Part shown: in pieces, positions 24,543 to 43,914 of the stretch | Layout of the letters: the number at the start of each line of letters is the position of its first letter | Numbering within the stretch: position 1 is the first letter of the stretch | Source of the DNA: Smithellaceae bacterium | GTDB taxonomy: Bacteria > Desulfobacterota > Syntrophia > Syntrophales > Smithellaceae | Length of the DNA: 64,000 nt | Direction: 5' to 3' | Assembly: GCA_963682015.1 (NCBI GenBank) | Contig: OY820932.1 | Location: 354,804 to 418,803, forward strand | The notes under the pieces: generated by a model | What the model saw: the letters and a program-made list of their open reading frames with translations, nothing else | Databases searched by the model: none | Told to the model about the DNA's origin: nothing | Made by a program: the position numbers and the translations under genes

Positions 24543-24550
24543 GAAAGCCC

Positions 24551-25294: not shown

Positions 25295-25542
25295 CTTCTA
25301 TATATCCCACTGTTTTCGTTCTCTGGTGAAACATTTTAAATAATGAATATAAGCGATTATCGGCACATCATTCTTTTAACCCACACTCTGGTCCTGATTG
25401 ATCCTGGCTAGCCCTCAAGATCTAAAAGCAAGCCTTCAAAAACCTTTCTTGCCAGTTTTGATTATTTATTCCATTGTATTCTTCATTATGATAGTAAAAT
25501 TACCGTTATTCAATATCATAAGCGGTATCAAAAAGGAATATC

Positions 25543-27356: not shown

Positions 27357-28550
27357 TTACAGCATTTCATAAATTGCGGCTGCACCCATACCGCCGCCGA
27401 TACACATGGAAACGATGCCACGCTTGCCGCCGCGACGCTTCAATTCATGCAGCAACTGAGCCGTCAGCTTTGCGCCGGTGCATCCCAGAGGATGGCCCAG
27501 GGCAATGGCGCCGCCGTTGGGGTTGATATCGCCCGCCCAGTAGCGGTCTTCGATACCGACCACGCGGCAGGAATAGATCGCCTGCGATGCGAAGGCTTCG
27601 TTAATTTCAAACACATCGATATCCTTCGGCGTAAGACCGGCCATTTTCAATACCTTGGGAATTGCATAGGCGGGACCGACACCCATTTCTTCGGATTTGC
27701 AACCGGCCACAGCGTAATATGCCAGGCGAGCCAGAGGCTTAAGCCCTAGTGCTTTGGCTTTTTCAGCCGTCATCAGCAGTGAGAATGCCGCGCCATCCGT
27801 CATCTGAGAAGAATTGGCGGCCGTTACGTTACCACCCGCTTTAAAGGGTGATTTCAATTTTGCCATGTTTTCCATCGTTACCGGCCAGCGAACACCGTCA
27901 TCCGTGTCAAAAATGAATGTTTCACGGACACGCTTGCCATTTTTAATTTTGTATTTGAATGCATCAATCGGAATGATTTCATCTTTGAATTTTCCGGCTT
28001 TGATCGCTTCATACGCGCGACGATTGCTTTCCACTCCGAATTTATCCATATCTTCGCGGGTAACATTGTAATTCATTGCTACATTTTCCGCCGTGTTGCC
28101 CATATTGATATAAACATCCGGCATACTGCCGTCAAATTTCCAGTCGGGGTTGGGACGCATGGCCGAACCGCCCATGGGAATATGCGACATGGTTTCGCAA
28201 CCACCGGCAATGATGATTTCCGACCACCCGGCACGGATTTTTGCCGTCGCGTCAGCAATCGCCTGAACACCGGATGAACAGAAACGGTTAACCGTCATGC
28301 CGGAGCAGGAAATGGGTAGACCGGCTCCCATGGCCAGAATTCTTCCCAGGTTCATCCCCTGTTCGCATTCCGGGAAAGAACAACCAACGATTAAATCATC
28401 TATTTCAGCAGGATTAACCTGCGGCACACGGGCCATCAGGCCTTTAAGAACCTGTATTCCATATACATCGGATCTCGTTGCGGCGAGACCTCCTCTTTTA
28501 TAACGACTGCCCGGACTTCTCACGGATTCTACAATTACAGCATCGCTCAT
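27357..28550 (-). CDS. fadA: Thiolase (acetyl-CoA C-acyltransferase)
   Basis: NRFCSSG, NEAF, GHPLG and SMCIGGGMG motifs. Confidence 0.93.
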   Translation of the reverse strand: MSDAVIVESVRSPGSRYKRGGLAATRSDVYGIQVLKGLMARVPQVNPAEIDDLIVGCSFPECEQGMNLGRILAMGAGLPISCSGMTVNRFCSSGVQAIADATAKIRAGWSEIIIAGGCETMSHIPMGGSAMRPNPDWKFDGSMPDVYINMGNTAENVAMNYNVTREDMDKFGVESNRRAYEAIKAGKFKDEIIPIDAFKYKIKNGKRVRETFIFDTDDGVRWPVTMENMAKLKSPFKAGGNVTAANSSQMTDGAAFSLLMTAEKAKALGLKPLARLAYYAVAGCKSEEMGVGPAYAIPKVLKMAGLTPKDIDVFEINEAFASQAIYSCRVVGIEDRYWAGDINPNGGAIALGHPLGCTGAKLTAQLLHELKRRGGKRGIVSMCIGGGMGAAAIYEML

Positions 28551-28620
28551 GATTTTCCTCCTTCATGTCATGAAGACGCGGGGAATATGCATACGATCAC
28601 CGCGTCTGTGATTATATATT

Positions 28621-31041
28621 TTAGTTACGCAGCGGTTTGCCGTTGCTCAGCATGTACATAATGCGTTCCTGAGTCTTCTTCTCGCCGCACAGGCTGACAA
28701 ACGCTTCTTTTTCCAGTTCCAGAATTTCCTGTTCCGAGACAAACGTTCCTTCAGCACAATCGCCACCGGAAAGGATATAGGCCACTTTCTTCGATACAAA
28801 TACATCGTAATCGGATACGAAATTACCGTATCTCATGTTCTGGATAATGGCATTAACCATACCGCGGAAATTCTCTCCCATGACGGGAATCAAAGCCGGT
28901 TTCGGCGGTTTGTAATCGGCCGATACCAGAGACAACACCAACCGTTTCGCTTCAAATATCTGCTGATCACGGCTCATATTGATGGTTTCCGACTTGCGGA
29001 CATAGCCCAGTTCCATAGCTTCCGCCGCACTGGTGGAGACTTTGGCCATGGCGATGTTTTCGAAAGCTTTGCCCATGTGATACTGCAGATTGAATCCCTG
29101 TTCGATCAGGCCGCTGGGAATGCCTTCGGTCAAGCGAACCAGCAGTTCCTTGCAGCCGCCGCCGGCCGGAATCACGCCAACACCAACTTCGACAAGCCCC
29201 ATATAGCTTTCGCCGTTGGGCAGACAACGGGCGCCATGCATCGCAATTTCACAGCCGCCGCCCAGAGCCATGCCGGCCGGAGCCGTTACAACAGGCTTGG
29301 AAAGATATTTCATCTTCATATTGGCTCCCTGCAGAGCTTCAACGCCTTTTTCAATCAGATCCCACTGCCCCATCTGAGCAGCCGCGAGAACCTGGAAGAC
29401 GTTGGCGCCGGCCGAGAAGGCACGCGGATCATGATTGGCAACCACCATACCCACGAAATCCTTTTCGACGATATCGCAGGCTTCCTGCTGCATTGCGGTC
29501 AAACCTTCATCGATCGAGTTCATTTTGGTATGGAATTCCAGACAAACCACGCCGTCACCGATATCAATCAGGCTGGCGCTGGCGTTTTCTTTAATGATCT
29601 TATTTTTGCTTTTGAGATCGGGCAGAATGATGATGCGGGGATTCTCCTCGATCTTTGCATACGCTTTTTTCTCAAAGTCATAGTAATATTTGCCGTCGGC
29701 TTTGGTCGTATAGAAGGATTCACAGCCTTTCTTCAGCATTTCTTCGATCTTCTTGGGAACCTTCAGTTTCAGTTTCTTCATGACTTCGATGGATTCCTTG
29801 ACGCCCACGGCATCCCAGGACTCAAACGGACCCAACTGATGATTGTAGCCCCACTTCATGGCGTTGTCGATCGCCATGATGTCATCACAGATTTCACCGA
29901 TACGATTGGCTGAATAAATGAAGTTTTTGCAGAGATATTCACGAACAAACTCTCCGGCCCGGTCGTCGGCATAGAAAACCATCTTCATGGATTCAGCAAC
30001 GTTTTCTTTCTTTTTTGCCGCTGAGACAGAGTCAAACTTCGGCTTGCCGGACGGAACGTATTCCATCGTCTCGATGTCCAGCATCAACTTCACGGACTTG
30101 CCCTTGGCATCTTTGGTTTTCTTGTAGAAACCCTGCTTGGTTTTGTTGCCAAGCCATTTGTTGGCGATCATCTTCTCGGCGAAAGGCAGAGGTACGTACA
30201 TATCGCGCATTTCGTCATTGGGAACGGCATCATACAGATTCTTGGATACATGCATGCCGATATCCAGACCCACCAGATCCAGGGTTCCAAAAAGAGCGGT
30301 GCCGGGACGGCCGATGGCTTTGCTGACAATTGCATCTGTTTCATCGATCTTATATTTTCTTTCGTACATGATGCGCTGCGCATTCGACAAATCGAATGAT
30401 CCGATGCGGTTGCCGACGAAATTGGGAACATCCTTGGCGATGACGACGCCTTTCCCCAGGGTCTGTTCGCTGAATTTGATCATGAAATCGAGAATCTCTT
30501 TATCCGTTTCCACGCCCGGAATGATCTCCATCAGTTTCATGTAACGGGGAGGATTGAAGAAATGGGTTCCGAGGAAACGCTTCTTTAAACCAGCGCTGAA
30601 TTTCGCGCTGATATCTTTAATGGGAATACCGGACGTGTTCGTCGAAACGATACAGGTCGGTTTGACAATCTGTTCAACCTTGGCAAAGAGTTCCTGTTTG
30701 ATTTTGAGATTTTCCACAACAACTTCACAAACCCAGTCAACATCGGCCAACATTTTTAAATTGTCTTCAAAGTTGCCGATTTTGATCATGGATGCGTTCT
30801 TCTTGGTAAAGAAACTGGCTGGTTTCGATTTCGTAACGCCGGCCAGACCGTTTGCCGCGAAGCGATTACGCCAGGCGGGGCTTTTCTCCGTCAAGCCTTG
30901 CTTCTTGTCAGCATCCGTCAGTTCGAATGGGATGATATCGAGCAAATAACACTCGATACCGGCATTGGTCAGATGAGCCGCGATGGTAGCCCCCATGACT
31001 CCCGCACCTAAAACAGCCGCTTTTTTGATCTGTAATGACAT
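28621..31041 (-). CDS. fadN: 3-hydroxyacyl-CoA dehydrogenase/enoyl-CoA hydratase fusion (FadN-type)
   Basis: GAGVMG Rossmann motif, STNTSG, HFFNP, and a C-terminal crotonase domain (FSAGAN, LGGGCE, GLVE). Confidence 0.9.
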   Translation of the reverse strand: MSLQIKKAAVLGAGVMGATIAAHLTNAGIECYLLDIIPFELTDADKKQGLTEKSPAWRNRFAANGLAGVTKSKPASFFTKKNASMIKIGNFEDNLKMLADVDWVCEVVVENLKIKQELFAKVEQIVKPTCIVSTNTSGIPIKDISAKFSAGLKKRFLGTHFFNPPRYMKLMEIIPGVETDKEILDFMIKFSEQTLGKGVVIAKDVPNFVGNRIGSFDLSNAQRIMYERKYKIDETDAIVSKAIGRPGTALFGTLDLVGLDIGMHVSKNLYDAVPNDEMRDMYVPLPFAEKMIANKWLGNKTKQGFYKKTKDAKGKSVKLMLDIETMEYVPSGKPKFDSVSAAKKKENVAESMKMVFYADDRAGEFVREYLCKNFIYSANRIGEICDDIMAIDNAMKWGYNHQLGPFESWDAVGVKESIEVMKKLKLKVPKKIEEMLKKGCESFYTTKADGKYYYDFEKKAYAKIEENPRIIILPDLKSKNKIIKENASASLIDIGDGVVCLEFHTKMNSIDEGLTAMQQEACDIVEKDFVGMVVANHDPRAFSAGANVFQVLAAAQMGQWDLIEKGVEALQGANMKMKYLSKPVVTAPAGMALGGGCEIAMHGARCLPNGESYMGLVEVGVGVIPAGGGCKELLVRLTEGIPSGLIEQGFNLQYHMGKAFENIAMAKVSTSAAEAMELGYVRKSETINMSRDQQIFEAKRLVLSLVSADYKPPKPALIPVMGENFRGMVNAIIQNMRYGNFVSDYDVFVSKKVAYILSGGDCAEGTFVSEQEILELEKEAFVSLCGEKKTQERIMYMLSNGKPLRN

Positions 31042-31194
31042 TATTCTCCTCCTTCTTTTTCTTATGAACCGTCTTTGTATTTTTTACGGCCCATAAATTG
31101 TTTGAGGCCGAACTGCGCCTCCATTAAACTTCATGCTTCTTTCAATATTTCATGAACCGCATCACATGCGACTCATTATCTTTACAAATTATGA

Positions 31195-31210
31195 TGTTAA
31201 ATTGATCACA
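31195..31210. promoter_or_regulatory. CRP/FNR-family-like palindrome upstream of fadN
   Basis: TGTTA-N6-TCACA, one mismatch to TGTGA-N6-TCACA. Confidence 0.4.
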
Positions 31211-31635
31211 TCCTTTCTTCACCGTTATTTCCGGTTACAAAAAACTTCACCAAGGAAAATTCGGTGAGGCTTTTATTATGATCATGTTCTTGCCTGCGGC
31301 AGGGTTGAAAGTGGAAACTATGTAAAGTGATCAGAAGATGAAAGATGACTGCTGAAAATCTTGATTCCGGTACTTCTTTTGGTTCATAAAGACGTGTTTG
31401 GAAATACATTGTATTACAGACTTCAGGCATTCCGTGGCTCCCTTTCCACTTTGAAGAGAAGTCAAAATAATTGAAATTGATTTTGCCCTGCTGTTACATC
31501 CGGGTATCAATTCCAGATCCTCAGGAAAGAAACAACAGTTGCTGAAACTATCCCTGCTTATACGGAAATTCGAAAAACCTGTTTTTTCACGAAAACAACG
31601 ACTCACATAATGATAATCAGCGTCTGTTTTCGGTT

Positions 31636-31695
31636 CAAATTCTTCGCCCTCTCCGTGCTCCCTGAGGGATTACTTTTAGCTGTACCTTGGGTTTG
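31636..31695 (-). ncRNA. Candidate structured RNA (possibly atoC-like motif)
   Basis: Minus strand CAAACCCAAGGTACAGCTAAAAGTAATCCCTCAGGGAGCACGGAGAGGGCGAAGAATTTG can form nested pairing. The resemblance to the deltaproteobacterial atoC motif is from recollection and is unverified. Confidence 0.3.
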
Positions 31696-31868
31696 AGTCA
31701 ATTACTGACTAAAAGTCAATTTGGTTATTAAACCAAACAAACACCAAAGTCAAGGCAAATAAAAAAATGGAAAATGATTTGATCGAAACCATAAAACTCG
31801 CTGACTGCATCAGGCAAATCATGAGAAAAAGATAGACAGATCAAATAGATTTAATATATTAGAAATGC

Positions 31869-33461
31869 ATGTTTGCTTTAAAAAAATATACCCCTTATCT
31901 TATAATTTCGATACTGGTTATGGTGATTTACTGGCCATCGCTGTCGGGTGATTTTATCTTCGATGACAATATGCTCATCAAAAACAATCCCTACATCAAA
32001 AGTTTGCACAATGTATCTTCCTACCTCACCCAGGAAGACGGTATTGTTGATGAAACAGATAAAGTCACTTTACATACCGGTTACTACAGACCTCTGCTCA
32101 ACTTTACATATTACATCGACTATCGAATTTGGGGTATGGACGCGTTCGGCTTTCGTTTAACCAATATTCTTTTGCATTTAATCTGTTGTCTGTTAATCTT
32201 TCAATTGCTTCTTCGTTTGAAAATTGATCAGATAGCGGCACTGCTCGGCACCACCTTCTTTGCGGTTAACCCGATTAATTCTGAGACCATATCCATGATC
32301 GTATGCAGAAATAATCTTCTTGCAACCATATTTTCCGTCCTGTCTCTCATTTCCTATATTGAAAGCCGCCGTGGCTGGCAGTTCAACATATTCTTCTCCA
32401 TGCTTTTCTTCCTGTTGGCCCTTTTATCTAAAGAAGTCGCCCTCATGATACTACCTGTTTTTTTCCTGTACAACAGATTGGTGGATGCGCAGGACAGAAA
32501 CATCTCAAGAGAATTATTGAGTTATTTACCTTTCTTACTGATTGTGATTATTTACCTGATGATTCGATCGCAGGTGATCGGAGGATTCATTTCACCATTT
32601 GGTACGAGCAATACCCTCACCAGGTTATTTTTTATTCCGTATCTCATCATCTATAATCTTTTCTTAATTTTCGTTCCTTACGGGCTTCACAGTTTCTATG
32701 TAAAATACCCGGCTTCTTACCTTGGTTATGAAGCAATCCTCTCCGATGCATTCCTTTTATTACTGATTGTGGCATTGTGGATGCTCCGTAAATATAAATT
32801 ATTAATCTTTTCGATATCCGCCTTTGTCATATCCATGTTTCCGGTTATGCATATTATACCTTTCGCATCGCCTTCACTTATTACCATGAGATGGATATAT
32901 TTCCCGTTAGCATTTTTATCTATTGCGGTAGCTTATGGATTCAAGTCGGCAACAGCCTTCAAGAAGAACGGGATTTTTGTCTGCATCCCATTGATATTTT
33001 TTATGTACCTGGGAACCTACACTTTCGTGCTGAATGATACACTATGGAAAAATAATCGCTCTTTTTTGAACATTGAGGTTTTGCAATTTAATAATATCCT
33101 GTTTGCCCATGATCTGGCTAAAGAAATGCAATCAGAGGGAAAATACCAGGAAGCGGAACGTCTCTATTTGGTTGCTCTACAAGCCTTTCCAAACAAAGCG
33201 CAAACATATATTGATTATGCTGCACTGCTCATTAATACGGGACGTTTTCAAAACGCCAAAGAATATTTAGACAAATCTCATGCGTTGGTCATGATGAGAG
33301 ATGATCGCTGTCTCTGGTACACTAACATGAGTGTAGCATTTCTTAATCTACATAACATACCCGGTGCACGCACAAATTTGGAAAAGGCGATTCAACTCTG
33401 CCCCGAAAATCCGAATTTCAGAAGGAGACTACAATACATCGATAAACTGGAATCTCCCTGA
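31869..33461 (+). CDS. TMTC-like GT-C glycosyltransferase with C-terminal TPRs (copy D)
   Basis: GDFIFDD..I..N, YYRPL, NILLH, P..SE....R, SKE, R.IY.P; about 11 TMs; TPR tail. Confidence 0.75.
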   Translation: MFALKKYTPYLIISILVMVIYWPSLSGDFIFDDNMLIKNNPYIKSLHNVSSYLTQEDGIVDETDKVTLHTGYYRPLLNFTYYIDYRIWGMDAFGFRLTNILLHLICCLLIFQLLLRLKIDQIAALLGTTFFAVNPINSETISMIVCRNNLLATIFSVLSLISYIESRRGWQFNIFFSMLFFLLALLSKEVALMILPVFFLYNRLVDAQDRNISRELLSYLPFLLIVIIYLMIRSQVIGGFISPFGTSNTLTRLFFIPYLIIYNLFLIFVPYGLHSFYVKYPASYLGYEAILSDAFLLLLIVALWMLRKYKLLIFSISAFVISMFPVMHIIPFASPSLITMRWIYFPLAFLSIAVAYGFKSATAFKKNGIFVCIPLIFFMYLGTYTFVLNDTLWKNNRSFLNIEVLQFNNILFAHDLAKEMQSEGKYQEAERLYLVALQAFPNKAQTYIDYAALLINTGRFQNAKEYLDKSHALVMMRDDRCLWYTNMSVAFLNLHNIPGARTNLEKAIQLCPENPNFRRRLQYIDKLESP

Positions 33462-33550
33462 AAATTATTCTCTTGTCCACTCGGGAAGATAATCCCATCT
33501 CACACCGGTATTATCATCGAACAACAAAAGGCGCTGGCGTTTCGCACCGG

Positions 33551-35200
33551 CTATTGGTTCATTATACTGAATACGACATAATTGCGATCTTCGAAAACCT
33601 TTTTTAAAGTACGGTTCATTTGCCTCGTTAACTGTTCCACTTTTGTTGAATCATAATTGTCCAATAAATATTGCCGAAACAAATCATAACGCACAAATAG
33701 ATGGGTGCAATCCAACGATTTTAAATATTTATAGAATGAATAAGAATCGGCAGCGTGATTGACCATGCCCTGGATCACCGCTATTCCCCGTGAAGGGTCG
33801 TCCCGGAAAATTCTATCGAGATAGTATCCTCGTCCTGACAACAAAACCAGCCTGATCCTGGAAGTTTCATCCGTATTTTTATTAATATACATGATTGCAG
33901 GGTAACTGGCGTCATGGCGCGAGATAAAGTCGTTTCGTGATTCTTTTTTGACAATGTATTCTACGGGAGCAATTTTGCGAAAATATTTCTGAAAATATAT
34001 AATGTTGAGAAAGATCAACCCTGCAAAAACGGCCGCTAATGCGACTGCACATATCTTCCGCCATAGATTTTTTCCAGCCGTGATCCATTCCAGCAGGTTG
34101 ATCAAGCCTGTTACCGACAGAATGACGAAAAAAGGAATTGCCGGCAGTATATATCGAATTCTGATCTGGTCCAGAAATAAGGTAAGCAGAATAAAAAACA
34201 CGGAGAAAAGCAGGAAAAGCATGTTCTCCCCTTTTTTTTCTCTCTTCAAGAAAGCAAAAGGAATAAACAGGATCAGCAGTGGATTCAAAACACCATCAAA
34301 ATAACGAGGAGAATCATCCTGGCCCTGAAAAAACATCCGGAAAGGGATTAACAGGACATCCCATAAATTTTCCCCATATAGAAGCTCCCGCATTTTAAAA
34401 ATACCAATATGCGTGTATCCGAATGCCACTGTATTCGTTCCGCCGCCCCCTTCGGTGCTTTTAAATATACCGGGAAACAGGGGATATAAGGGATTACCGG
34501 TCAGAAGCGTGTTTTTGATCATCCAGGGGGAAAATACAGCCAGCGAAATGACAAAAAAAATAAAACCATATTTTAGAGACTTTCCCGAATTCCCGGTGTC
34601 TCTGGAATAGATAAATACGGTGGCCATTGTCAGGAAAAACCAGGCAATCAGGGCATTATATTTTGTTCCTAAAGCCAACCCCATTGCTACGGAAGCAAGC
34701 ATCAGCCATGGAAAAGACTTATAATCCGATGCACGCCAATGCATCAGCGAGAGCATACAAGCCGTAATAAAGAATACAAGGCCGAGATCTACATACGCCA
34801 TCGTTGATAGTTTACTGACAATCGGGGTGCTGAAAAACATTAAGAAACCAAGCAAACCGGCAATATGATTCAAGCGACTTCTAAGATAAAGATAAATCAT
34901 TGCAGCAGTGCCCAAAGCAAAACACAGATGAATGAATGCAGGAATGATATCATTTCCGAAGTACAGTGATAGCCCGTAAAGCAAATCGACATTCATGGGA
35001 AAATATGAATGGGGGGCCCAGGGCATTTCATAAAAACCACCGTGATGAATCCAGAGTTTGGGAATCGCCAGATGATGGATCAGGGCATCACGAGCGACAG
35101 GTGGCGTCAGGCATAATAGAGCCGCCATTACTATAAAATAAATAATGGTCAGAATGACCAGAATGGATAAAAGATATTTATATTTGCCAGTCTTCATCAT
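33551..35200 (-). CDS. GT-C (ArnT/PMT-like) membrane glycosyltransferase
   Basis: DALIHHLAIP after TM1, YFP, YVDL, TKY, GNPLYP, RY; polytopic with a C-terminal periplasmic domain. Confidence 0.65.
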   Translation of the reverse strand: MMKTGKYKYLLSILVILTIIYFIVMAALLCLTPPVARDALIHHLAIPKLWIHHGGFYEMPWAPHSYFPMNVDLLYGLSLYFGNDIIPAFIHLCFALGTAAMIYLYLRSRLNHIAGLLGFLMFFSTPIVSKLSTMAYVDLGLVFFITACMLSLMHWRASDYKSFPWLMLASVAMGLALGTKYNALIAWFFLTMATVFIYSRDTGNSGKSLKYGFIFFVISLAVFSPWMIKNTLLTGNPLYPLFPGIFKSTEGGGGTNTVAFGYTHIGIFKMRELLYGENLWDVLLIPFRMFFQGQDDSPRYFDGVLNPLLILFIPFAFLKREKKGENMLFLLFSVFFILLTLFLDQIRIRYILPAIPFFVILSVTGLINLLEWITAGKNLWRKICAVALAAVFAGLIFLNIIYFQKYFRKIAPVEYIVKKESRNDFISRHDASYPAIMYINKNTDETSRIRLVLLSGRGYYLDRIFRDDPSRGIAVIQGMVNHAADSYSFYKYLKSLDCTHLFVRYDLFRQYLLDNYDSTKVEQLTRQMNRTLKKVFEDRNYVVFSIMNQ

Positions 35201-35209
35201 TAATCTTCA

Positions 35210-37138
35210 TCATCTCTTTGTTAGTTTTTCTAAGACTTTATATCGTGGATCAAGATCAACAGCTTTCTTAAAATGCTCCTGCGCTTCTTTGTCGCACCCC
35301 TTCACCGTCAAAATTTTATATAGATAATAATGAATATTTGCCTGTTGCGGATTTAAACGAACCGATCTCTGGAAATACTGAAGCGCCTGATCCATCTTTT
35401 CCTGCTGCGTTAAGACAATCCCCAGATTATTGTTTGCCTCAATATTGCCGGGCTGAATACGCAAAACTTCTCGATATTCTCTGATCGCTTCAGTCGTTTT
35501 TCCTTTCATGAGATAAGCATTACCCAGACTGCCATGATACCGGGGATCATCATTCTCCAGGGCAACCGCTTTTTGGTATACGATGATCGCTTCGTCCATA
35601 CGATTATTCTGATAATAGACGGCCCCGAGACGGTAATAGGCTTCGTGACCTTTCGGATTGATATTTATCGCCTTTTTGAAAACGGTAATGGCTTCATTCG
35701 TTTTACCCTGCAAACTCAACGCATTCGCCAGGCTGACCAGTGGCGTATAATCAGCCAGATTGTATGGATTTCCACTGATAGCTTCCCTGAAATGGCTGAC
35801 GGCTTCATCCATTCTCTTTTGTTTAACAAGTTCATTTCCTAAAGCGGTATGGGCAACAAAATTTCCTTTTGTCACCTGAAGGGCTCGTTCGAAGAGCACG
35901 TAAGAATTTTGCCAGCAGGAAGCCTGCCTGTGGGCAACGGCAGTTAATCCCGCAAGCAGCAGAATTAAAAAAACTGCAGCAACTCTTTTAAAATTACGAT
36001 TCCGAATCATATCCGCTGCCATCCAGATCAGGGCAATGAATAGTCCGATGAAAGGAACGTACGCATATCGGTCGGCCATGGACTGCGAACCTACCTGAAC
36101 AATGCCAATCACCGGAACCAGAGTACCCAGATACCAGAACCAGCCAATAGAAAGATAGGGATACTTTTTATAATATTTCCAGCAAATTGAAGTAATGACG
36201 ATAATCAATAAAGCAGCCGGCAATACCTGCACGATCGAAAGCTCCACCTGGGGATAAAAGACGGCGAGATCAACCGGCCAGAACATCTTTTTCAAATACA
36301 GCGCATACGACACAATCGCATTATTCATGCGATGCGTGAATAAAACGAACGCAAACCGCGCTATGGTATCTGCGTTTCTTGCGGCGTAAACCGTGAGCAA
36401 TATGGAGATTCCCGTAAGAATAAAGAGGGGAATCTTTTCCACGATCAGGAATTTCAGGCCTACCTTCTCTGCGTGAACAGACAGTGAAACCTCCTGCGGA
36501 ACCGTATCGATCAGCGTGCGGTTCAACGGCCAGTAATCCATCAGCAGCAACACAAACGGCAACGTCACCAGCATCGGCTTGGACATCAGCCCCAGTGCAA
36601 AACAGACTATCACCGGCAGGTACCGTTTCCATCCCGGCTTCTCTGCATACCAGACATAAAACAGCATGGTCAAAAACCAGAAAAAGGTGCTCAACACATT
36701 CTTCCGCTCCGCCACCCACGCTACCGATTCCACATTAATCGGATGGATCGCAAACAAGGACGCAACAATCGCGCTTCGCCATATCGCTCCTGTCATCCGG
36801 CTCAAGAGCAAAAAGAGTAACACCGTGTTGATAATATGAAGAATTAAACTGGTCCAGTGATGCCCCCCGGCCTTGTCTCCAAACATCTGCCAGTCCAGCA
36901 TGTGCGACAGCATGGTCAATGGATGCCAATGACCGGTATGAGTATCCGTAAATGCCGCTGAAATACTTCCCGGTGTTATTTCGTCCTGTATCCTGAAATT
37001 ATGTGTAACGTAAAGCTGATCATCATAATTGATAAAATCAAAACCCTGAACCTGCCAGTAAACGGCAAGAATGAATACCAGCAAAGCCAGAATTATGATT
37101 ATTTTCTGATGACGATCCGTAATGGAACCGATCAACAT
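35210..37138 (-). CDS. TMTC-like GT-C glycosyltransferase with TPRs (copy C)
   Basis: FINYDD, WHPL, HPINVESVAWVAERK, SKP, ADRYAY; several TPRs. Confidence 0.8.
   Translation of the reverse strand: MLIGSITDRHQKIIIILALLVFILAVYWQVQGFDFINYDDQLYVTHNFRIQDEITPGSISAAFTDTHTGHWHPLTMLSHMLDWQMFGDKAGGHHWTSLILHIINTVLLFLLLSRMTGAIWRSAIVASLFAIHPINVESVAWVAERKNVLSTFFWFLTMLFYVWYAEKPGWKRYLPVIVCFALGLMSKPMLVTLPFVLLLMDYWPLNRTLIDTVPQEVSLSVHAEKVGLKFLIVEKIPLFILTGISILLTVYAARNADTIARFAFVLFTHRMNNAIVSYALYLKKMFWPVDLAVFYPQVELSIVQVLPAALLIIVITSICWKYYKKYPYLSIGWFWYLGTLVPVIGIVQVGSQSMADRYAYVPFIGLFIALIWMAADMIRNRNFKRVAAVFLILLLAGLTAVAHRQASCWQNSYVLFERALQVTKGNFVAHTALGNELVKQKRMDEAVSHFREAISGNPYNLADYTPLVSLANALSLQGKTNEAITVFKKAININPKGHEAYYRLGAVYYQNNRMDEAIIVYQKAVALENDDPRYHGSLGNAYLMKGKTTEAIREYREVLRIQPGNIEANNNLGIVLTQQEKMDQALQYFQRSVRLNPQQANIHYYLYKILTVKGCDKEAQEHFKKAVDLDPRYKVLEKLTKR
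35849..36150. repeat. Near-identical block of about 300 bp shared with 37793..38094
   Basis: Direct comparison shows only a handful of substitutions; offset 1944 bp. Confidence 0.9.
36484..36928. repeat. 445-bp exact direct repeat, copy 1
   Basis: Identical by eye to 38428..38872; the identical 84-aa shadow ORFs in the ORF track confirm part of it. Confidence 0.92.
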
Positions 37139-37165
37139 TCTATAAACCTCTTACGTCGGTATATT

Positions 37166-39082
37166 TTAATTTTCTATTTTTCCATACCCGGGATTAATTC
37201 GGACCGCTTCATTATAGTGGTAATCAGCTTTTTCGTTCATACCCTTTTGTCTCAAAATAATCGACAATCGATAATGAGCATTCGCAAACAGTGGTTGCAG
37301 TCTTACTGCCTGCTGAAAATGCATTAAAGCTTTATCCGGTTGCCCCTGATTCATCAAGAGCATGCCCAAATTGTTGTGCGCGCCGGCATTCCCCGGCTGG
37401 ATGCGCAATACTTCGTTGTATTCGTTGATTGCTTCTTTGGTCTTTCCCTGTTTGATATAGGCATTTCCAAGGCTGCCGTGATAAAGTGGATAGTCGTTAT
37501 TTACGGCAATGGCTTTCTGATATTGTTCAATTGCTTCATCCACGCGCCCGGCTTCAAAGTAAACAAACCCGAGTCGATAATAGGCTTCATCAAGCATTGG
37601 ATGAAGCCTTAAGGCACTTTTGAATGCATGAATGGCTTCTTCCTTCTTCTCCTGCAAGCTGAAGGCATGCCCTAAACCAACAAAAGCCATATAGTTTGCG
37701 GGATTTTTCGGATTTAATCTGATAGATTCCTGAAAATGAGAAATCGCTTCCTCTATTTTATTTTGCTTGATCAACTCATTTCCCAGAATAACATGGGCAA
37801 CAAAATTTCCTTTGGTCACCTGAAGGGCTCGTTCGAAGAGCACGTAAGAATTTTGCCAGCAGGAAGCCTGCTTGTGGGCAACGGCAGTTAATCCCGCAAG
37901 CAGCAGAATTAGAAAAACTACGGCAAGTCTTTTAAAATTACGATTCCGAATCATATCCGCTGCCATCCAGATCAGGGCAATGAATAGTCCGATGAAAGGA
38001 ACGTACGCATATCGGTCGGCCATGGACTGCGAACCTACCTGAACAATGCCAATCACCGGAATCAGAGTACCCAGATACCAGAACCAGCCAATAGCAAGGT
38101 AGGGATGCTTTTTATAATACACGAGACATACTGCAGTAATAACGACTAACAGGAAGACCGCCATTAATAACTGTTCCACCGGAATTTCCAGTAAAGGGTA
38201 GAATACAGCCAGATCCACGGGCCAGATGAGTTTCTTTAAGTAAAGAAAGTAAGACCATATTGAATTGTAAATGCGTTGCGATAACGGCACAAAACCAAAA
38301 TGTGCTATGATACCTCCGTTTCTTGCGGCGTAAACCGTGAGCAATATGGATATTCCCGTAAGAACAAAGAGGGGAATCTTTTCCACGATCAGGAATTTCA
38401 GGCCTACCTTCTCTGCGTGAACAGGCGGTGAAACCTCCTGCGGAACCGTATCGATCAGCGTGCGGTTCAACGGCCAGTAATCCATCAGCAGCAACACAAA
38501 CGGCAACGTCACCAGCATCGGCTTGGACATCAGCCCCAGTGCAAAACAGACTATCACCGGCAGGTACCGTTTCCATCCCGGCTTCTCTGCATACCAGACA
38601 TAAAACAGCATGGTCAAAAACCAGAAAAAGGTGCTCAACACATTCTTCCGCTCCGCCACCCACGCTACCGATTCCACATTAATCGGATGGATCGCAAACA
38701 AGGACGCAACAATCGCGCTTCGCCATATCGCTCCTGTCATCCGGCTCAAGAGCAAAAAGAGTAACACCGTGTTGATAATATGAAGAATTAAACTGGTCCA
38801 GTGATGCCCCCCGGCCTTGTCTCCAAACATCTGCCAGTCCAGCATGTGCGACAGCATGGTCAATGGATGCCAGTTGGTTGTATGGGTATCCGTAAATGCA
38901 AATGCAATATTTCCAGGTGTTATTCCGCCCTGTGTCCTGTAATTCTGCGTAACGTAAAGCTGATCATCATAATTGATAAAATCAAAACCCTGAACCTGCC
39001 AGTAAACGCATAGGATCAGGGCAATCAATGCCAAGATAGCAAGACTTTTACATTTCGCCACTGAATCGGGTAAAATTGACAT
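37166..39082 (-). CDS. TMTC-like GT-C glycosyltransferase with TPRs (copy B)
   Basis: Same motifs as copy C; the TPR region is divergent. Confidence 0.8.
   Translation of the reverse strand: MSILPDSVAKCKSLAILALIALILCVYWQVQGFDFINYDDQLYVTQNYRTQGGITPGNIAFAFTDTHTTNWHPLTMLSHMLDWQMFGDKAGGHHWTSLILHIINTVLLFLLLSRMTGAIWRSAIVASLFAIHPINVESVAWVAERKNVLSTFFWFLTMLFYVWYAEKPGWKRYLPVIVCFALGLMSKPMLVTLPFVLLLMDYWPLNRTLIDTVPQEVSPPVHAEKVGLKFLIVEKIPLFVLTGISILLTVYAARNGGIIAHFGFVPLSQRIYNSIWSYFLYLKKLIWPVDLAVFYPLLEIPVEQLLMAVFLLVVITAVCLVYYKKHPYLAIGWFWYLGTLIPVIGIVQVGSQSMADRYAYVPFIGLFIALIWMAADMIRNRNFKRLAVVFLILLLAGLTAVAHKQASCWQNSYVLFERALQVTKGNFVAHVILGNELIKQNKIEEAISHFQESIRLNPKNPANYMAFVGLGHAFSLQEKKEEAIHAFKSALRLHPMLDEAYYRLGFVYFEAGRVDEAIEQYQKAIAVNNDYPLYHGSLGNAYIKQGKTKEAINEYNEVLRIQPGNAGAHNNLGMLLMNQGQPDKALMHFQQAVRLQPLFANAHYRLSIILRQKGMNEKADYHYNEAVRINPGYGKIEN
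38428..38872. repeat. 445-bp exact direct repeat, copy 2
   Basis: Identical to 36484..36928. Confidence 0.92.
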
Positions 39083-39245
39083 TACTCCAACCTCTATGGA
39101 GTGAATAAAATTTCTGAAGTTGTTTTAACTGCTTTTTGCTCACTTTCATTGTATCAAAATAAGATGATTTTCCAACGCCACTCTTTATATGATCTTGAAT
39201 TTGGAAGTTTCTGTTCATTACGGCGATTCAGCATAACACTGATGG

Positions 39246-41294
39246 TCATGATTTGCCTTTCTTAAGGATTTCGATCTCTCTCAAACTACGCAAAGCATCC
39301 TGATCGTCAGGCTTAATTTGTAACACCTTTCTGTATTGCTCAGAAGCCTCTTCATATCTCTTCATCTTTTTCAACAAATTACCCAAATTATTACGTCCCG
39401 GAACATGCCGAGTGTCTATACTTATCACTTGCTGAAAGTCTCCGATAGCGTCATTGTATCTGCCAAGAAAGGCAAACGATACCCCTCGATATAAGTATGC
39501 CTCGGCAAATTGCGGCTTAATATCCAGTGTTGTGGTAAAATCAGAAATCGCATTTATATACTGCCCTGAAGTGTTATAAATAATCCCCCGATTAAAATAT
39601 GCCTCGGCAAGCTGCGGATTGATTTTCAACGCCCGGTTTAGATCAGCAAATGCTTTTTTGTAATCCCCTTTTAAATGTAAAGCCAGCCCTCTATTATTAT
39701 ATGCATCCGCCATTTCAGGCTCAATTCTGATTGTTTCCGTAAAGTCCGCAATCGCCGCATCCAGTTGACCGGTTTTAAGATATAGGAGGCCCCGATTATA
39801 ATAGATATCGGCAAATCTTGGATTAATGCTTTGCGCGTGATTAAAATCGATCAAAGCACGAGAATACTCGCTCATGCCTGTATACAGAATGGCTCTGTTA
39901 ATGAAAGCCTCAACAAATTTTTTTTCCAATTCTATGGCAGTGTTATAATCAGCCAGTGCCAGATTATTCCGGCCTTCTTCAGCATAGGCCAGTCCTCTAA
40001 AATTATAAGCAAAAGCAACTTTATGATGCTTAAGGACATTGTTCCATAGAGCAAACTTATTCCCCCACAGTTGACAATACTGCCAGCAAATAACGGACAA
40101 AAACAATACGACACAAAATGAAAAAATAATAAAACCAGCTCTCAGGTATTTGTTTTGCGATACACAGTCATAAGAATACCAGACCACCATAACAAACAAC
40201 CCTATAAAAGGAACATAAGCGTAACGATCAGCCATTGCTTGGTCACCAACCTGAACAAAACCGATTACGGGCACCATGATTCCAAGAAACCAGAGCCAGC
40301 CGACTAACAGATAAGGTTTTTTTTGATAGTATCTTATGATCAGAAGGGAAAGAAAAACTAAAAAAAGTAGTATCATCAAAAGTTCCCATCCTGCAATATT
40401 GTATCTTGGGTAAAATACGGACAAATCCAAGGGCCAGAACATCTTTTGAATGTATATTCCGTAAGAAGCAATGGCATTTTGAACGCGCAGATGAAAGGGC
40501 AAAGAATCAATGCTTACCACAGCGCCTACCGATTGTTGCGCGTGCATCGTTATTGCACTGAATATTCCCGTTAAAACAAAAAGCGGAATTTTTTCTGCAA
40601 TCAAAAATTTCCATCCGGCTTTCCGGACTTGAACGGATTGTCGATCCTCATTATAGCTTGTATCAATCTCTGTCCGGTTAAACGGCCAGTAATCCATAAG
40701 CAGCAACGCAAACGGCAACGTTACCAGCATCGGCTTGGACATCAGACCCAGTGCAAAACAGAGTATCACCGGCAGGTATCGCTTCCATCCCGGTTTCTCT
40801 GCATACCAGACGTAAAACAGCATGGTCAAAAACCAGAAAAATGTGCTCAACACATTCTTCCGCTCCGCCACCCAAGCTACCGACTCCACATTGATCGGAT
40901 GAACTGCAAATAAAGCCGCCACCAAAGCACTTCGCCACAAGGCTCCGGTCAGACGGTTCAATAACAGAAACAGCAAAATCGTATTGAGAATATGAATGAT
41001 CACACTGGTCCAGTGATGCCCTCCGGCCTTATTCCCGAACAACTGCCAGTCCAGCATGTGCGACAGCATTGTCAAGGGATGCCAGTTAGCGGTTTTAATA
41101 TCCGTGAACGAACTGAACACGGATTGTAAATTGATTCCCGATTTTACATGGTTATTTTGCGTCACATACATATTGTCATCATAGTTTATAAAATTAAAAC
41201 GCTGTACCTGCCAGTAGATGGCAAGAGTCAACATGGACAATACTAGAATGATCATCATTATTTTCCAGCGAAGAGGCAGGAAAAAAACGTGCAT
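39246..41294 (-). CDS. TMTC-like GT-C glycosyltransferase with longer TPR array (copy A)
   Basis: FINYDD, NWHPL, HPINVESVAWVAERK, ADRYAY; about eight TPRs of the AY.NRG type. Confidence 0.8.
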   Translation of the reverse strand: MHVFFLPLRWKIMMIILVLSMLTLAIYWQVQRFNFINYDDNMYVTQNNHVKSGINLQSVFSSFTDIKTANWHPLTMLSHMLDWQLFGNKAGGHHWTSVIIHILNTILLFLLLNRLTGALWRSALVAALFAVHPINVESVAWVAERKNVLSTFFWFLTMLFYVWYAEKPGWKRYLPVILCFALGLMSKPMLVTLPFALLLMDYWPFNRTEIDTSYNEDRQSVQVRKAGWKFLIAEKIPLFVLTGIFSAITMHAQQSVGAVVSIDSLPFHLRVQNAIASYGIYIQKMFWPLDLSVFYPRYNIAGWELLMILLFLVFLSLLIIRYYQKKPYLLVGWLWFLGIMVPVIGFVQVGDQAMADRYAYVPFIGLFVMVVWYSYDCVSQNKYLRAGFIIFSFCVVLFLSVICWQYCQLWGNKFALWNNVLKHHKVAFAYNFRGLAYAEEGRNNLALADYNTAIELEKKFVEAFINRAILYTGMSEYSRALIDFNHAQSINPRFADIYYNRGLLYLKTGQLDAAIADFTETIRIEPEMADAYNNRGLALHLKGDYKKAFADLNRALKINPQLAEAYFNRGIIYNTSGQYINAISDFTTTLDIKPQFAEAYLYRGVSFAFLGRYNDAIGDFQQVISIDTRHVPGRNNLGNLLKKMKRYEEASEQYRKVLQIKPDDQDALRSLREIEILKKGKS

Positions 41295-41360
41295 AAATCA
41301 CTCCTCATGGAATCGGAGAATGGAATTATAACAACACGATAATTTCAGATATTGTGATGT

Positions 41361-41394
41361 AAAAAAAGGCTGTTATCGAAATAACAGCCTTTTT
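41361..41394 (-). terminator. Terminator after pilin 2
   Basis: AAAAAGGCTGTTAT-ttcg-ATAACAGCCTTTTTTT on the minus strand. Confidence 0.85.
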
Positions 41395-41416
41395 CAGAAT
41401 AATTAACTGATAATTA

Positions 41417-41779
41417 TTATTCAATATTTCCATCCGTATTAATACTGTACGTTGCAGTACCTGCCAAATGATAGGCGGACGCACCGGTCATTTTCTGTGT
41501 CCCCGCAGTTGTAATAATTACATCACCCGTTTGTGTAAACGTATCAGCAACGGTGCTAAGATTACAATCTTGAGTGCTATGCGTTGCAAAATACGCCTGA
41601 CAGGCTGTATAAAAACTTCTTAATTCGGCCTTAGCGCTGGTATTGTAACCTTTCTGCCTGTAGGAAACAAATTGCGGGATGGCAATGGCGGCCAGAATGC
41701 CAATGATTGCAATGACGATCATCAATTCGATCAGCGTAAAACCTCTCTGGTTAAATTTTCTGCGAATTGCTTTTATCAT
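41417..41779 (-). CDS. pilA: Type IVa pilin 2 (107-aa mature)
   Basis: Class III signal ...QRG|[22 protein letters not shown]; RBS GGAGG before the ATG at 41779. Confidence 0.92.
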
Positions 41780-41847
41780 AACCACCCTCCGTGCAACCAA
41801 AAACCATCTTACAAACCATTAACCTATACATTCCTGGGATCAGTTTG

Positions 41848-41882
41848 AAAAAAAAGGCTGGTATAAACATTAACCAGCCTTT
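41848..41882 (-). terminator. Terminator between the two pilins
   Basis: AAAGGCTGGT...ACCAGCCTTTTTTTT on the minus strand. Confidence 0.8.
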
Positions 41883-41912
41883 CTTGATTTTTACATTTTA
41901 CATCCTTACCGA

Positions 41913-42281
41913 CTAAGGTGTAATATTGCCGCTTGCGCCAACCGTATAAGTCTGCGTTCCAGCAGTATGAACCGCAGTAGCACCTACCAGCGTCTGACCT
42001 CCAATTGTTGTAATTGCAACATCTCCAGAGTTAATAAACGTTGCTGTTATCGTACCCAAAGTGCAATCGGTTCTTGTCGGACTATCAGCAAAATAAGCCT
42101 GGCAGGCTGTATAATAACTCTTTAACTCGCCCTTTGCCTTGGTGTTGTATCCCTTCTGCCTGTATGCAACAAACTGCGGGATGGCGATCGCCGCCAGAAT
42201 ACCGATAATTGCGATAACAATCATCAACTCAATCAATGTAAAACCTTTCTGACCTGATTTTCTACGAAATACTTTCAACAT
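41913..42281 (-). CDS. pilA: Type IVa pilin 1 (109-aa mature), probable major pilin
   Basis: ...QKG|[22 protein letters not shown]; RBS AGGAGG; sigma-54 promoter upstream. Confidence 0.94.
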
Positions 42282-42433
42282 AGCAGTCCTCCTTGTTTAA
42301 TTAAGTGTTTTATTTGGTTGCCTTTGTTCGTATATTCATTACATAAGAACTTTTTTTTTTCAATCTTTAATTTGTTAACTGTTTTACCTCCTGCATTTTT
42401 ATATAAATCATCATTTCTCTCAGTCTTTCGTAA

Positions 42434-42449
42434 AGCAATGGGTATGCCA
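42434..42449 (-). promoter_or_regulatory. Sigma-54 (-24/-12) promoter of the pilin locus
   Basis: Minus strand TGGCATACCCATTGCT, with GG-N10-GC spacing, about 150 bp upstream of pilin 1. Confidence 0.8.
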
Positions 42450-42700
42450 AATAAAACTGATTATTTATTCATTACAATTATCAAATGCTTAGAAATTTAT
42501 AGTGACGAATATCACCCTAAAAAAACAGAATGTTTGTATAAAAACAGGTCATTTTCACCAAACAATTGTCAATTTGCACTATCCCGTTTAATCTGTTTTC
42601 CCCTTGATGAAAATGTGATAATAAATTAGCAGGATTGATAAATATTAAAAAAATGCCTCGTCATTGCGCCACGCGCACTGACAGGCAATGATTGGGCATT

Positions 42701-43072
42701 ATGTTTGAAGTCTCCATTATCAAATCTTTTTCCGCCGCGCATTTACTGGCTGAAATCGGAGGCAAGTGCGAAGAATTGCACGGCCATAACTTCAAGGTGG
42801 AAGTCACTGTCGGCGCCCCTGAATTGAATTCCGAAGGAATTCTGATTGATTTCAGGATGGTAAAAAAATGGCTCAAAGACATTCTGGACCGTATGGATCA
42901 CCAGCACTTGAATAATCTTCCTTTTTTTGCCGGTCAAAATCCTTCTTCGGAAAACCTTGCGTATTACATCTATCAGGAAATGCAGGACAGCATTCAGAAA
43001 TCCGGCGTCAAGATGGTGCGGGTAAAAGTCTGGGAATCGGAAAACGCGTCAGTAACCTATAGAGGAGAATAG
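42701..43072 (+). CDS. queD: 6-carboxy-5,6,7,8-tetrahydropterin synthase
   Basis: FSAAH, C...HGHN, IDF, DH, PSSEN and WES motifs. Confidence 0.92.
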   Translation: MFEVSIIKSFSAAHLLAEIGGKCEELHGHNFKVEVTVGAPELNSEGILIDFRMVKKWLKDILDRMDHQHLNNLPFFAGQNPSSENLAYYIYQEMQDSIQKSGVKMVRVKVWESENASVTYRGE

Positions 43073-43146: not shown

Positions 43147-43914
43147 ATGATAGATATTCAAAACCAAAAGGATTTTCGAAAAATCGACATCAAGAAGGTC
43201 GGCGTAAAAAACATCAAATACCCGATTATAGTGCTGGACCGTACACGGGGCACTCAGCCGGTAAACGCCACCATTAACATGTATGTCAATCTTCCCCATC
43301 ACTTCAAGGGCACGCACATGAGTCGGTTCGTGGAAGTGCTCAATGACTTTCGCGGTCAGGTCAATATTAAAACCTTTCAGACGATTCTGGGGAAAATGCG
43401 GCAGAAGCTTCGCGCACAGTCCGCGCACATGGAAATCGAATTCCCTTATTTTTTAAAAAAAACGGCACCCGTTTCCGGAGCCAAAAGCATGATGGAATAC
43501 CGCTGTCTGTTCACCGGAGAAAGTAACGGCGAGCAAACTGACTTTCTGGTGGGAGTCGTTGTGCCGGTTACTACCTTGTGCCCCTGCTCCAAGGAAATCA
43601 GCGCCTTCGGAGCGCACAATCAGCGAAGCATCGTTACCGTCAAAGTCCGCTTTCGAAAATTCTTCTGGATCGAAGATCTGATAAAAACAGTGGAAGATTC
43701 GGCCAGTGGTGAGGTATATTCCCTGCTTAAGCGCGTGGATGAAAAATTTGTCACGGAAAAGGCGTACAAAAACCCAAAATTTGTAGAAGATCTGGTTCGC
43801 AGCGTGGCCGTGAAACTCAATACTGATGATAATTTCACCTGGTACAGCATCGAAGCGGAAAACTTTGAAAGTATCCACAATCACAGTGCTTATGCCTATG
43901 TCGAGAAAGGATAG
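43147..43914 (+). CDS. folE2: GTP cyclohydrolase IB
   Basis: [29 protein letters not shown]. Confidence 0.95.

Follow-up and report, generated by a model that had tools for sequence, protein, structure and literature searches.

The closest described counterpart of the system treated here is TfpW, which published accounts of Pseudomonas aeruginosa group IV (Pa5196, PA7) describe as a pilin D-arabinofuranosyl transferase. According to these accounts, TfpW is a protein of 646 residues, encoded directly downstream of pilA; its N-terminus is cytoplasmic, and it has 11 predicted helices, a DDx motif in periplasmic loop 1 that is essential and, at the C-terminus, a sizeable tetratricopeptide repeat (TPR) domain in the periplasm; the membrane part found its best template in ArnT and the TPR part in O-GlcNAc transferase, and homologues are reported to follow pilA in several gamma- and betaproteobacteria. 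Here we analyse a stretch of 64,000 nucleotides (the window) from a Smithellaceae bacterium (GenBank assembly GCA_963682015.1, contig OY820932.1, positions 354,804 to 418,803), in which two pilin genes are followed by three tandem genes for TPR proteins with a membrane domain of the glycosyltransferase C (GT-C) fold and by a TPR-less GT-C gene, and are faced by a convergent fourth TPR GT-C gene. By analogy with TfpW, the locus probably encodes an expanded TfpW-like set of TPR GT-C enzymes for the periplasmic O-glycosylation of pilins, and this is the reading that we favour.

Eukaryotic TMTC1-4, which are O-mannosyltransferases of cadherins, constitute CAZy family GT105. Their published motif table lists DD (M1), SHKSYRP (M2), RxD (M3), KE(T/Q)xxT (M4), a DW in the DUF1736 loop (M5), PxxP (M6) and ERxxY (M7) (PMC7801869, Table 4). 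Other systems share features with the locus to a lesser degree. The PMT/POMT enzymes (GT39), bacterial Pmt and ArnT (GT83) have in common with the window enzymes the GT-C fold, matches to Pfam PMT or PMT_2, an acidic pair in loop 1 and a lipid-phosphate-linked donor, here presumed; unlike PMT, the window enzymes have no MIR domain, and a TPR domain stands in its place. The tfpO gene, likewise described as an accessory gene beside the pilin gene, encodes an enzyme for the glycosylation of pilin in the periplasm, but TfpO/PilO and PglL transfer preassembled undecaprenyl-diphosphate-linked O-units, are not GT-C plus TPR proteins and are described as unrelated to TfpW. As reported, a Rho-independent terminator often follows the pilin gene in pilin-accessory cassettes and is believed to govern the proportion of the two proteins, and pilin glycosylation protects against pilus phages (bioRxiv 10.1101/150227).

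Gene order, fold and motifs of the enzyme array

The minus strand of the window carries, in this order, the genes for pilin 1 (41913-42281), pilin 2 (41417-41800) and the TPR GT-C proteins A (39246-41294, 682 residues), B (37166-39082, 638 residues) and C (35210-37138, 642 residues); the start of A lies 122 bp past the stop of pilin 2, and the last gene of the row encodes the TPR-less, PMT/PMT_2-like GT-C protein E549 (33551-35200, 549 residues). On the plus strand, the gene for D (31869-33461, 530 residues, about three TPRs) converges on E549; D is divergent, with 27% identity to A (E 3.8e-16). Open reading frames and Pfam searches thus agree with the preliminary description of this locus as two pilin genes, three paralogous genes for membrane-plus-TPR proteins, one ArnT/PMT-like GT-C gene and a convergent fourth. 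Pfam PMT_2 (PF13231, cut-off 26.1) was matched by A, B and C at 42.6, 33.5 and 33.6 bits, together with many TPR families, and D matched PMT at 23.5 bits versus a cut-off of 22.7, again with TPR families. E549 matched PMT (E 1.1e-9) and PMT_2 (E 9.9e-7) and no TPR family.

Regular-expression searches placed DD at residues 39-40 of A, B and C, followed by WHPL (71-74), HPINVE (132-137), ERKN (144-147), SKP (186-188) and DRYAY (356-360); the corresponding positions in D are DD (32-33), YRPL (73-76), NPINSE (134-139), SKE (187-189) and MRWIY (340-344). The acidic pair occurs as DDN or DDQ, seven residues past helix 1. Residues D39, D40, P73, H101, P133, R145, K187 and Y360 were invariant in 12 aligned membrane domains, and D39, D40, P73, H132, P133, R145, K187 and Y360 in 48 full-length homologues. 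The motif series that had been read by eye in all four TPR proteins is therefore real by both routes, the pattern searches and the alignments of 12 and 48 sequences; within the element that had been written as HPI..E......R the order stands, but seven residues, and not six, separate the Glu from the Arg.

An AlphaFold2 model of A (mean pLDDT 85.6) has helices that fit 11 membrane helices before residue 410, forming the GT-C domain of residues 1-410, and a TPR superhelix of helical hairpins at residues 413-681. The DD loop, WHPL, HPINVE...R, SKP and DRYAY all lie in loops on one side of the model, and the Lys/Arg-rich stretches 203-227, 323-326 and 379-381 lie on the side opposite the motif loops. 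From this fold and the Lys/Arg distribution, we infer that the TPR domain and the motif loops would face the periplasm, the same topology as is published for the TMTC proteins (PMC7801869) and as is reported to have been partly measured for TfpW.

Because Foldseek with the full-length model of A returned TPR proteins only, the membrane domain was folded alone, from an alignment of 12 rows, which gave a weaker model (pLDDT 68). When this domain was compared by VIA-align with 48,161 chains, the top 20 of the best 50 rows listed were all chains of the GT-C fold (Z 15.1-8.6, 266-346 aligned residues), and the next row was an unrelated chain at Z 7.5. The best match was STT3B (6s7t_A; Z 15.1, rmsd 5.2, 320 aligned residues), with AglB at Z 15.0, Pmt4 at 14.9, Pmt1 at 14.7, ALG12 at 14.2, ArnT and PglB at 12.8 and ALG9 at 8.6; two of the 20 chains are non-catalytic, namely subunit U of the GPI transamidase (7w72_U, 7wld_U). 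Foldseek with the membrane domain gave a result of the same kind, in that all 28 listed rows among the first 32 ranks were of the GT-C fold, at weak E values (0.012-0.12). The prediction that the membrane domain adopts the GT-C fold was thus borne out, and since the top VIA-align rows are tied within about 1 Z unit, the fold does not name the closest GT-C family. Searches of PDB chains by sequence or profile with the membrane domain gave no match or one chance match (E 2.9); another sequence search of PDB chains returned TPR proteins only, and one with E549 found nothing. A complex prediction for A with mature pilin 1 scored 0.00 versus a mark of 0.32 and, being run without controls, speaks neither for nor against binding.

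The three tandem paralogues are mosaics at the DNA level. B and C are 100% identical at aligned nucleotides 271-720 and 95-99% identical at nucleotides 991-1260, versus 57% in the first 90 nucleotides, about 62% at nucleotides 811-990 and about 60% where the TPRs are encoded; for A and B, identity is 93-94% at nucleotides 451-630. To judge from these sequences, the mosaic of B and C is suggestive of gene conversion between adjacent copies, which would keep the catalytic core uniform as the TPR domain and one loop region drift apart. A role of the variable TPR and loop parts in choosing the acceptor would fit this pattern, which does not prove it. The stretch duplicated in B and C also gives rise to twin spurious open reading frames at 36321-36719 and 38112-38663.

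Linkage of the enzymes to pilin genes

Both pilins match N_methyl (E 9e-11 for pilin 1, 1e-11 for pilin 2) and have the features of type IVa major pilins, namely a short leader, the cleavage/methylation site G/FTLIE (the slash marks the cleavage) and a hydrophobic alpha-1 helix. Pilin 1 (122 residues) has a leader of 13 residues and a mature length of 109, and it matches PilA_Myxo at 68 bits, below the family cut-off. The open reading frame of pilin 2 begins with a TTG at 41800, and the ATG at 41779, which gives a 13-residue leader as in pilin 1, is the probable true start; the mature protein then has 107 residues. The two pilins are 68% identical, both mature forms open with FTLIELMIV, and Ser and Thr make up 18 of the last 56 residues of pilin 1 and 16 of the last 54 of pilin 2. 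They belong to a family that is well conserved across the order (Syntrophales) and are of the same type as the Syntrophus aciditrophicus pilin SYN_00814, described as having a 13-residue leader, a G/FTLIE site, more than 100 residues and about 10.9% aromatic residues. An alignment of 50 pilins of the order has few invariant columns outside the N-terminal helix; one of these is a Thr in the stretch YTA(A/C)QA (T46 in the numbering of the first row, which starts one residue before the mature Phe).

The sigma-54 consensus is TGGCAC-N5-TTGC. A site of this -24/-12 type with one mismatch, TGGCAT-N5-TTGC, lies on the minus strand at 42435-42449, 154 bp upstream of the pilin 1 start and just at the right edge (42449) of the stretch singled out in the preliminary description, and is one of two one-mismatch sites among the 53 matches in the window; as the pattern was not enriched window-wide (53 matches versus a shuffle mean of 64) and total matches are thus not above chance, it is the position of the site that speaks for it. 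RNA folding revealed an intrinsic terminator hairpin after each pilin gene on the minus strand, both of which a consensus terminator scan of the window had missed. The hairpin after pilin 1 (GGCUGGU...ACCAGCC, then U8) occupies 41848-41879, as counted by hand from the fold, and that between pilin 2 and A (GGCUGUUAU-UUCG-AUAACAGCC, then U7) occupies 41361-41389, with a z-score of -3.86 and none of 200 shuffles equal to it.

Pilin linkage in related genomes had been set beforehand as a test that could have refuted the preliminary interpretation, and the outcome was strongly positive. Pilin 1 was matched in 117 of the 121 genomes of the order, its own included, and the best-hit locus was examined in the 60 lowest-E genomes among the 116 others, a choice that favours pilins like those of the window. 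A locus was counted as linked when a GT-C gene matching the profile of the A family (A1; E <= 1e-5) lay on the same strand and started less than 500 bp after the last pilin gene. By this definition 32 of the 60 pilA loci were linked; five of the 28 negatives had less than 1.5 kb of downstream contig, which leaves 32 of 55 informative loci, and of the 20 families represented by informative loci, 14 contributed linked ones. Runs of two to five enzymes were common. A close match to the membrane domain of A (E <= 1e-10) was present in 75 of the 121 genomes, and the genome of the window has ten such GT-C genes in 4.78 Mb, so that chance adjacency would be far below 1%. The adjacency of pilA and GT-C genes is a conserved operon-like arrangement that extends over 14 families, with the caveat that kin are not independent.

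At several of the pilin-centred loci (L092, L122, L133 and others), the first GT-C is of a divergent type (profile E about 1e-54 to 1e-61) and is followed by two to four A-like genes (E about 1e-135 to 1e-152), which hints at a fixed order of enzyme types in the arrays. The share of Ser and Thr in the pilins was 0.317 for 38 linked and 0.283 for 32 unlinked pilins; it was rejected as a test of linkage, as the difference is slight and kin are not independent, and it neither helps nor hurts the case.

Two further loci of the same chromosome carry related enzymes. L002 (chromosome 4553000-4567000) holds a second, different pilin pair (L002 5519-5974 and 6180-6572), beside which lie genes for a T2SSE protein with an MshEN domain, a T2SSF protein and a sigma-54 activator; a gene for a 697-residue TPR GT-C converges on the pilin pair, and GT1, epimerase, GT2 and methyltransferase genes come after it. 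The locus is a second, independent case of pilins lying beside a TPR GT-C in this genome. L001 (chromosome 2957000-2976900) carries on the minus strand an array of five paralogous TPR GT-C genes, interleaved with genes for a methyltransferase, a methyltransferase-GT2 fusion and, on the other strand, a beta-propeller protein. Its neighbours include an ArnC-like GT2 (E 3.7e-54) and two secreted proteins, a DUF6160 protein rich in Gly, Thr and Ala and a small one rich in Thr and Gly, and these two could be alternative acceptors. An open reading frame of 518 amino acids at L001:12686-14242 on the minus strand, with no Pfam match, was set aside as probably spurious, the overlapping plus-strand frame (503 residues) being the one that matches beta-propellers.

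Comparison with TfpW and TMTC proteins

TfpW, which is known to us by its published description, shares with A, B and C the 11 helices, the DDx in loop 1, the C-terminal TPR domain and a gene placed after pilA, and the terminator after each window pilin gene recalls the accessory cassettes to which tfpW belongs. The preliminary description had cited TfpW as a precedent for a pilin-adjacent GT-C acting on pilin; the precedent holds but was understated, as the authors of the TfpW work describe the same architecture and the same gene position. The locus is therefore best regarded as an expanded TfpW-like cassette, not as a new kind of system. It differs in that the single tfpW gene is replaced by a set of three paralogues in tandem, one TPR-less GT-C and a fourth enzyme that converges on them, in that no tfpX-like gene was seen here, and in that the host is a syntroph of the Thermodesulfobacteriota with a pilin of 109 residues. 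The sugar may differ as well. DprE1 carries an ALO domain, and a search of the 99.45%-complete genome for PF04030 (ALO), the one marker of the D-arabinofuranose pathway that was searched, found no match, with a positive control in Corynebacterium glutamicum; because no DprE1-type ALO domain was found in the genome, the sugar is probably not D-arabinofuranose.

The likeness to TMTC proteins had been claimed on the strength of architecture and motifs, and it holds in part. Both have an 11-helix GT-C domain followed by a TPR domain, lumenal in one case and predicted to be periplasmic in the other. Compared with the published motif table, and not with aligned TMTC sequences, the window proteins have M1 (DD), M2 (YRPL in D, WHPL in A, B and C) and M7 (DRYAY); M3 is represented by ERKN, and by ERKD in the L001 paralogues, and of M4 the Lys and Thr are present, with the Glu found only in D and in the L002 protein. 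No counterpart was found for M5 (DW, in external loop 4) or M6 (PxxP). The segment LFAVHPIN at the end of helix 3 resembles LLFAVHPIHT of TMTC3 (PMC7801869), and an ESM Atlas search placed a chordate TMTC_DUF1736 cluster at rank 22 (score 0.92), which we treat as a lead only. On the other hand, Pfam TMTC_DUF1736, which covers the loop between helices 7 and 8, had no match in the window proteins (hmmscan, E <= 0.01) or in the whole genome at E <= 1. Since none of TMTC_DUF1736, M5 and M6 was found, the proteins are TMTC-like and are not, by these tests, members of TMTC/GT105. The window TPR GT-Cs resemble TMTC proteins, to judge from their sequences, in architecture and in some active-site motifs, and Pfam places them in PMT_2. 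They further differ from TMTC proteins in the presumed acceptor, which would be a pilin here versus cadherin there, and in the donor, which here would be a bacterial polyprenyl phosphate sugar. A literature search found no paper that joins the terms TMTC, bacterial and pilin.

Proposed function and competing readings

If the locus glycosylates pilins, expression would begin at the sigma-54-type promoter, which would serve both major-pilin genes, and the terminator hairpin after each pilin would allow only a fraction of transcripts to reach A, B, C and E549; D would be transcribed separately. The prepilins would be anchored in the inner membrane and expose their Ser/Thr-rich globular half to the periplasm, on the same side as the predicted GT-C motif loops (DD, WHPL, HPI..E..R, SK and DRxxY). 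Each GT-C would move a sugar from a polyprenyl-phosphate carrier onto pilin hydroxyls, or onto a sugar that is already attached, while the periplasmic TPR superhelix would hold the acceptor. The paralogues, with a near-identical catalytic core but a differing TPR domain and one differing periplasmic loop region, would probably differ in site, sugar or elongation. Gene order, fold, motifs, terminators and the conserved adjacency of pilin and GT-C genes are results of the analysis, and the enzyme activity, the pilin as acceptor, the part played by the TPR domain and transcription past the terminators are inferred. Because the pairing of pilin and enzyme recurs across the order, the pili of this bacterium are probably sugar-coated.

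Several observations weigh against pilin glycosylation as the function of the locus. The cluster contains no polyprenyl-phosphate sugar synthase or flippase, and the nearest candidate, a GT2 gene, lies 5 kb beyond D. A, B and C have SKP where TMTC proteins have KE, the Glu of which is modelled by the TMTC authors as a metal ligand (PMC7801869), and the proline-rich motif Y-x6-PF-x7-P of TfpW is absent by regular expression from A, B, C, D and E549. Separate transcription of the GT-C genes would be an equally good explanation of the strong terminators. At the level of genomes, no GT-C neighbour was seen at 23 of the order's 55 pilA loci that were informative, very similar pilins are found both with and without one, and no prepilin was found by regular expression in the five-gene array of L001. 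Finally, in a survey centred on the enzymes, which covered 80 homologue loci from many phyla (Thermodesulfobacteriota, Acidobacteriota, Planctomycetota, Verrucomicrobiota, Armatimonadota, Nitrospinota and others), a prepilin-type open reading frame occurred in the flanks of six loci and directly upstream, within 177 bp, at three, all of them Syntrophaceae or 'delta' records; with so few prepilins, the family at large is not a pilin family.

This last result bears most directly on the chief competing reading, to which we give a real but clearly minor probability, that the TPR GT-Cs are general periplasmic protein O-glycosyltransferases, counterparts of PMT and TMTC, for which pilin is one substrate or a co-regulated neighbour. 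The family is very large, with at least 8000 homologues at E <= 0.001 spread over many phyla, and the other 74 of the 80 surveyed loci have no prepilin nearby; tandem arrays are common with or without a pilin (31 of the 80 loci had at least two profile hits and some up to six, fragments counted); the L001 array adjoins secreted Gly/Thr-rich proteins, not pilins. Some homologues bear the JGI label 'protein O-mannosyl-transferase', which we take to be the KEGG name for TMTC. Yet, within the order, a same-strand GT-C gene right after pilA at 32 of 60 loci is difficult to account for unless the two are specifically tied in function. One reading does not shut out the other, as a general family may include a pilin-dedicated subgroup. 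A FastTree phylogeny of 217 membrane domains, which requires 21 changes in the state of pilin linkage, was left out of the argument; it says little on origins, because the linked rows come from one order and the unlinked rows mostly from other phyla.

It is unlikely, in our estimate, that the enzymes instead modify a glycan or lipid (exopolysaccharide, the O-chain of lipopolysaccharide or lipid A), in the manner of ArnT, Gtr-type GT-Cs or arabinosyltransferases, with the proximity to pilA reflecting co-regulation. PMT_2 does extend to ArnT-like enzymes, and ArnT was among the fold matches listed above; other clusters of the genome combine such enzymes with genes that are typical of loci for polysaccharides, namely GT1, GT2, epimerase and methyltransferase genes, the GT2 of L001 resembles ArnC, and GT-C three-component systems that decorate polysaccharides are described as common. 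Against this, the proven pilin glycosylase TfpW occupies just this position next to pilin, the protein-directed enzymes TfpW and TMTC have TPR domains, and the window cluster is without polysaccharide polymerase or export genes. That the proteins are non-catalytic factors of pilus assembly or stability, TPR scaffolds like PilF/PilW or TfpY-type proteins, is highly improbable: some homologues are named 'Tfp pilus assembly protein PilF', the TPR part gives sub-threshold NCBIfam PilW matches and the pilin accessory protein TfpY is no enzyme, but those names rest on the TPR repeats only, while the proteins fold like GT-C enzymes and 48 homologues show no variation at the DD and other residues of active-site type.

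A broader proposal is put forward here as speculative. There may exist a huge and nearly unannotated bacterial family of TPR-guided GT-C protein O-glycosyltransferases, a counterpart of TMTC and the wider family of TfpW, whose arrays diversify by gene conversion, the core being kept identical while the acceptor-binding TPR and loop modules drift. The arrays of Syntrophales might then add several sugars, or modify several sites, on the PilA of about 110 residues that has been proposed as a conductive 'e-pilin', in which case the native pilus surface, the phage receptors and the conductivity measured heterologously would differ from what the bare sequence leads one to expect. What is new here is the description of the arrays and their mosaic evolution, the host lineage with its debated type of pilin, and the proposed tie between TfpW, a huge unannotated bacterial family and TMTC.

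If pilin glycosylation holds, the major pilins of a whole syntrophic order would be glycoproteins, including the Syntrophus/Smithella type discussed as conductive pili. Claims of conductivity are described as resting partly on Syntrophus pilin expressed in Geobacter, a host in which such accessory enzymes would probably be missing. The word stem 'glycosyl' occurs in neither the Syntrophus e-pili preprint nor the 2026 paper on comparative genomics of Smithellaceae, and no paper on glycosylation of Syntrophus pilin was found, judging by titles and abstracts. TfpW, moreover, would no longer be a curiosity of Pseudomonas and would be tied to a pan-bacterial family of TPR GT-Cs that is automatically annotated as 'tetratricopeptide repeat protein'. 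The arrays would then amount to a natural experiment on how TPR modules steer GT-Cs to their acceptors, a question shared with the human TMTC proteins.

A tentative donor module lies at 23751-27027, 5-8 kb away and beyond two fatty-acid oxidation genes. It consists of a methyltransferase gene (23751-24542) and a soluble GT2 gene (24551-25294) on the minus strand and, on the plus strand, a gene for a 494-residue multi-helix protein (25543-27027) with a D-V-D just after the first helix. For the GT2, NCBIfam ranks AglJ, dolichyl-phosphate hexose transferase and PpgS highest, none of which reaches its cut-off. Neither Pfam nor NCBIfam assigns a family to the multi-helix protein; among named ESM Atlas clusters, the nearest to it are GT-Cs (PMT_2, Dpy19 and STT3, score 0.93), again a lead only. 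Homologues of these proteins occurred within 10 kb of the pilin at seven (GT2), four (methyltransferase) and three (multi-helix protein) of the 60 pilin-centred loci, which lends weak support to the idea that the module belongs to the pilin system; homologues of E549 were present at 15 of the 60.

The window is part of a complete chromosome of 4.78 Mb with a G+C content of 0.50, and the nearest relatives of its proteins are Smithella or Smithellaceae records. The stretch with the pilin and GT-C genes (window 31000-43000) has a G+C content of 0.39-0.45 in 2-kb windows versus 0.50 for the genome, which would fit an island of surface antigens that varies or is exchanged horizontally. It is flanked by housekeeping genes, with the pair of fatty-acid oxidation genes (27357-31041) on one side and folE2 (43147-43914) on the other.

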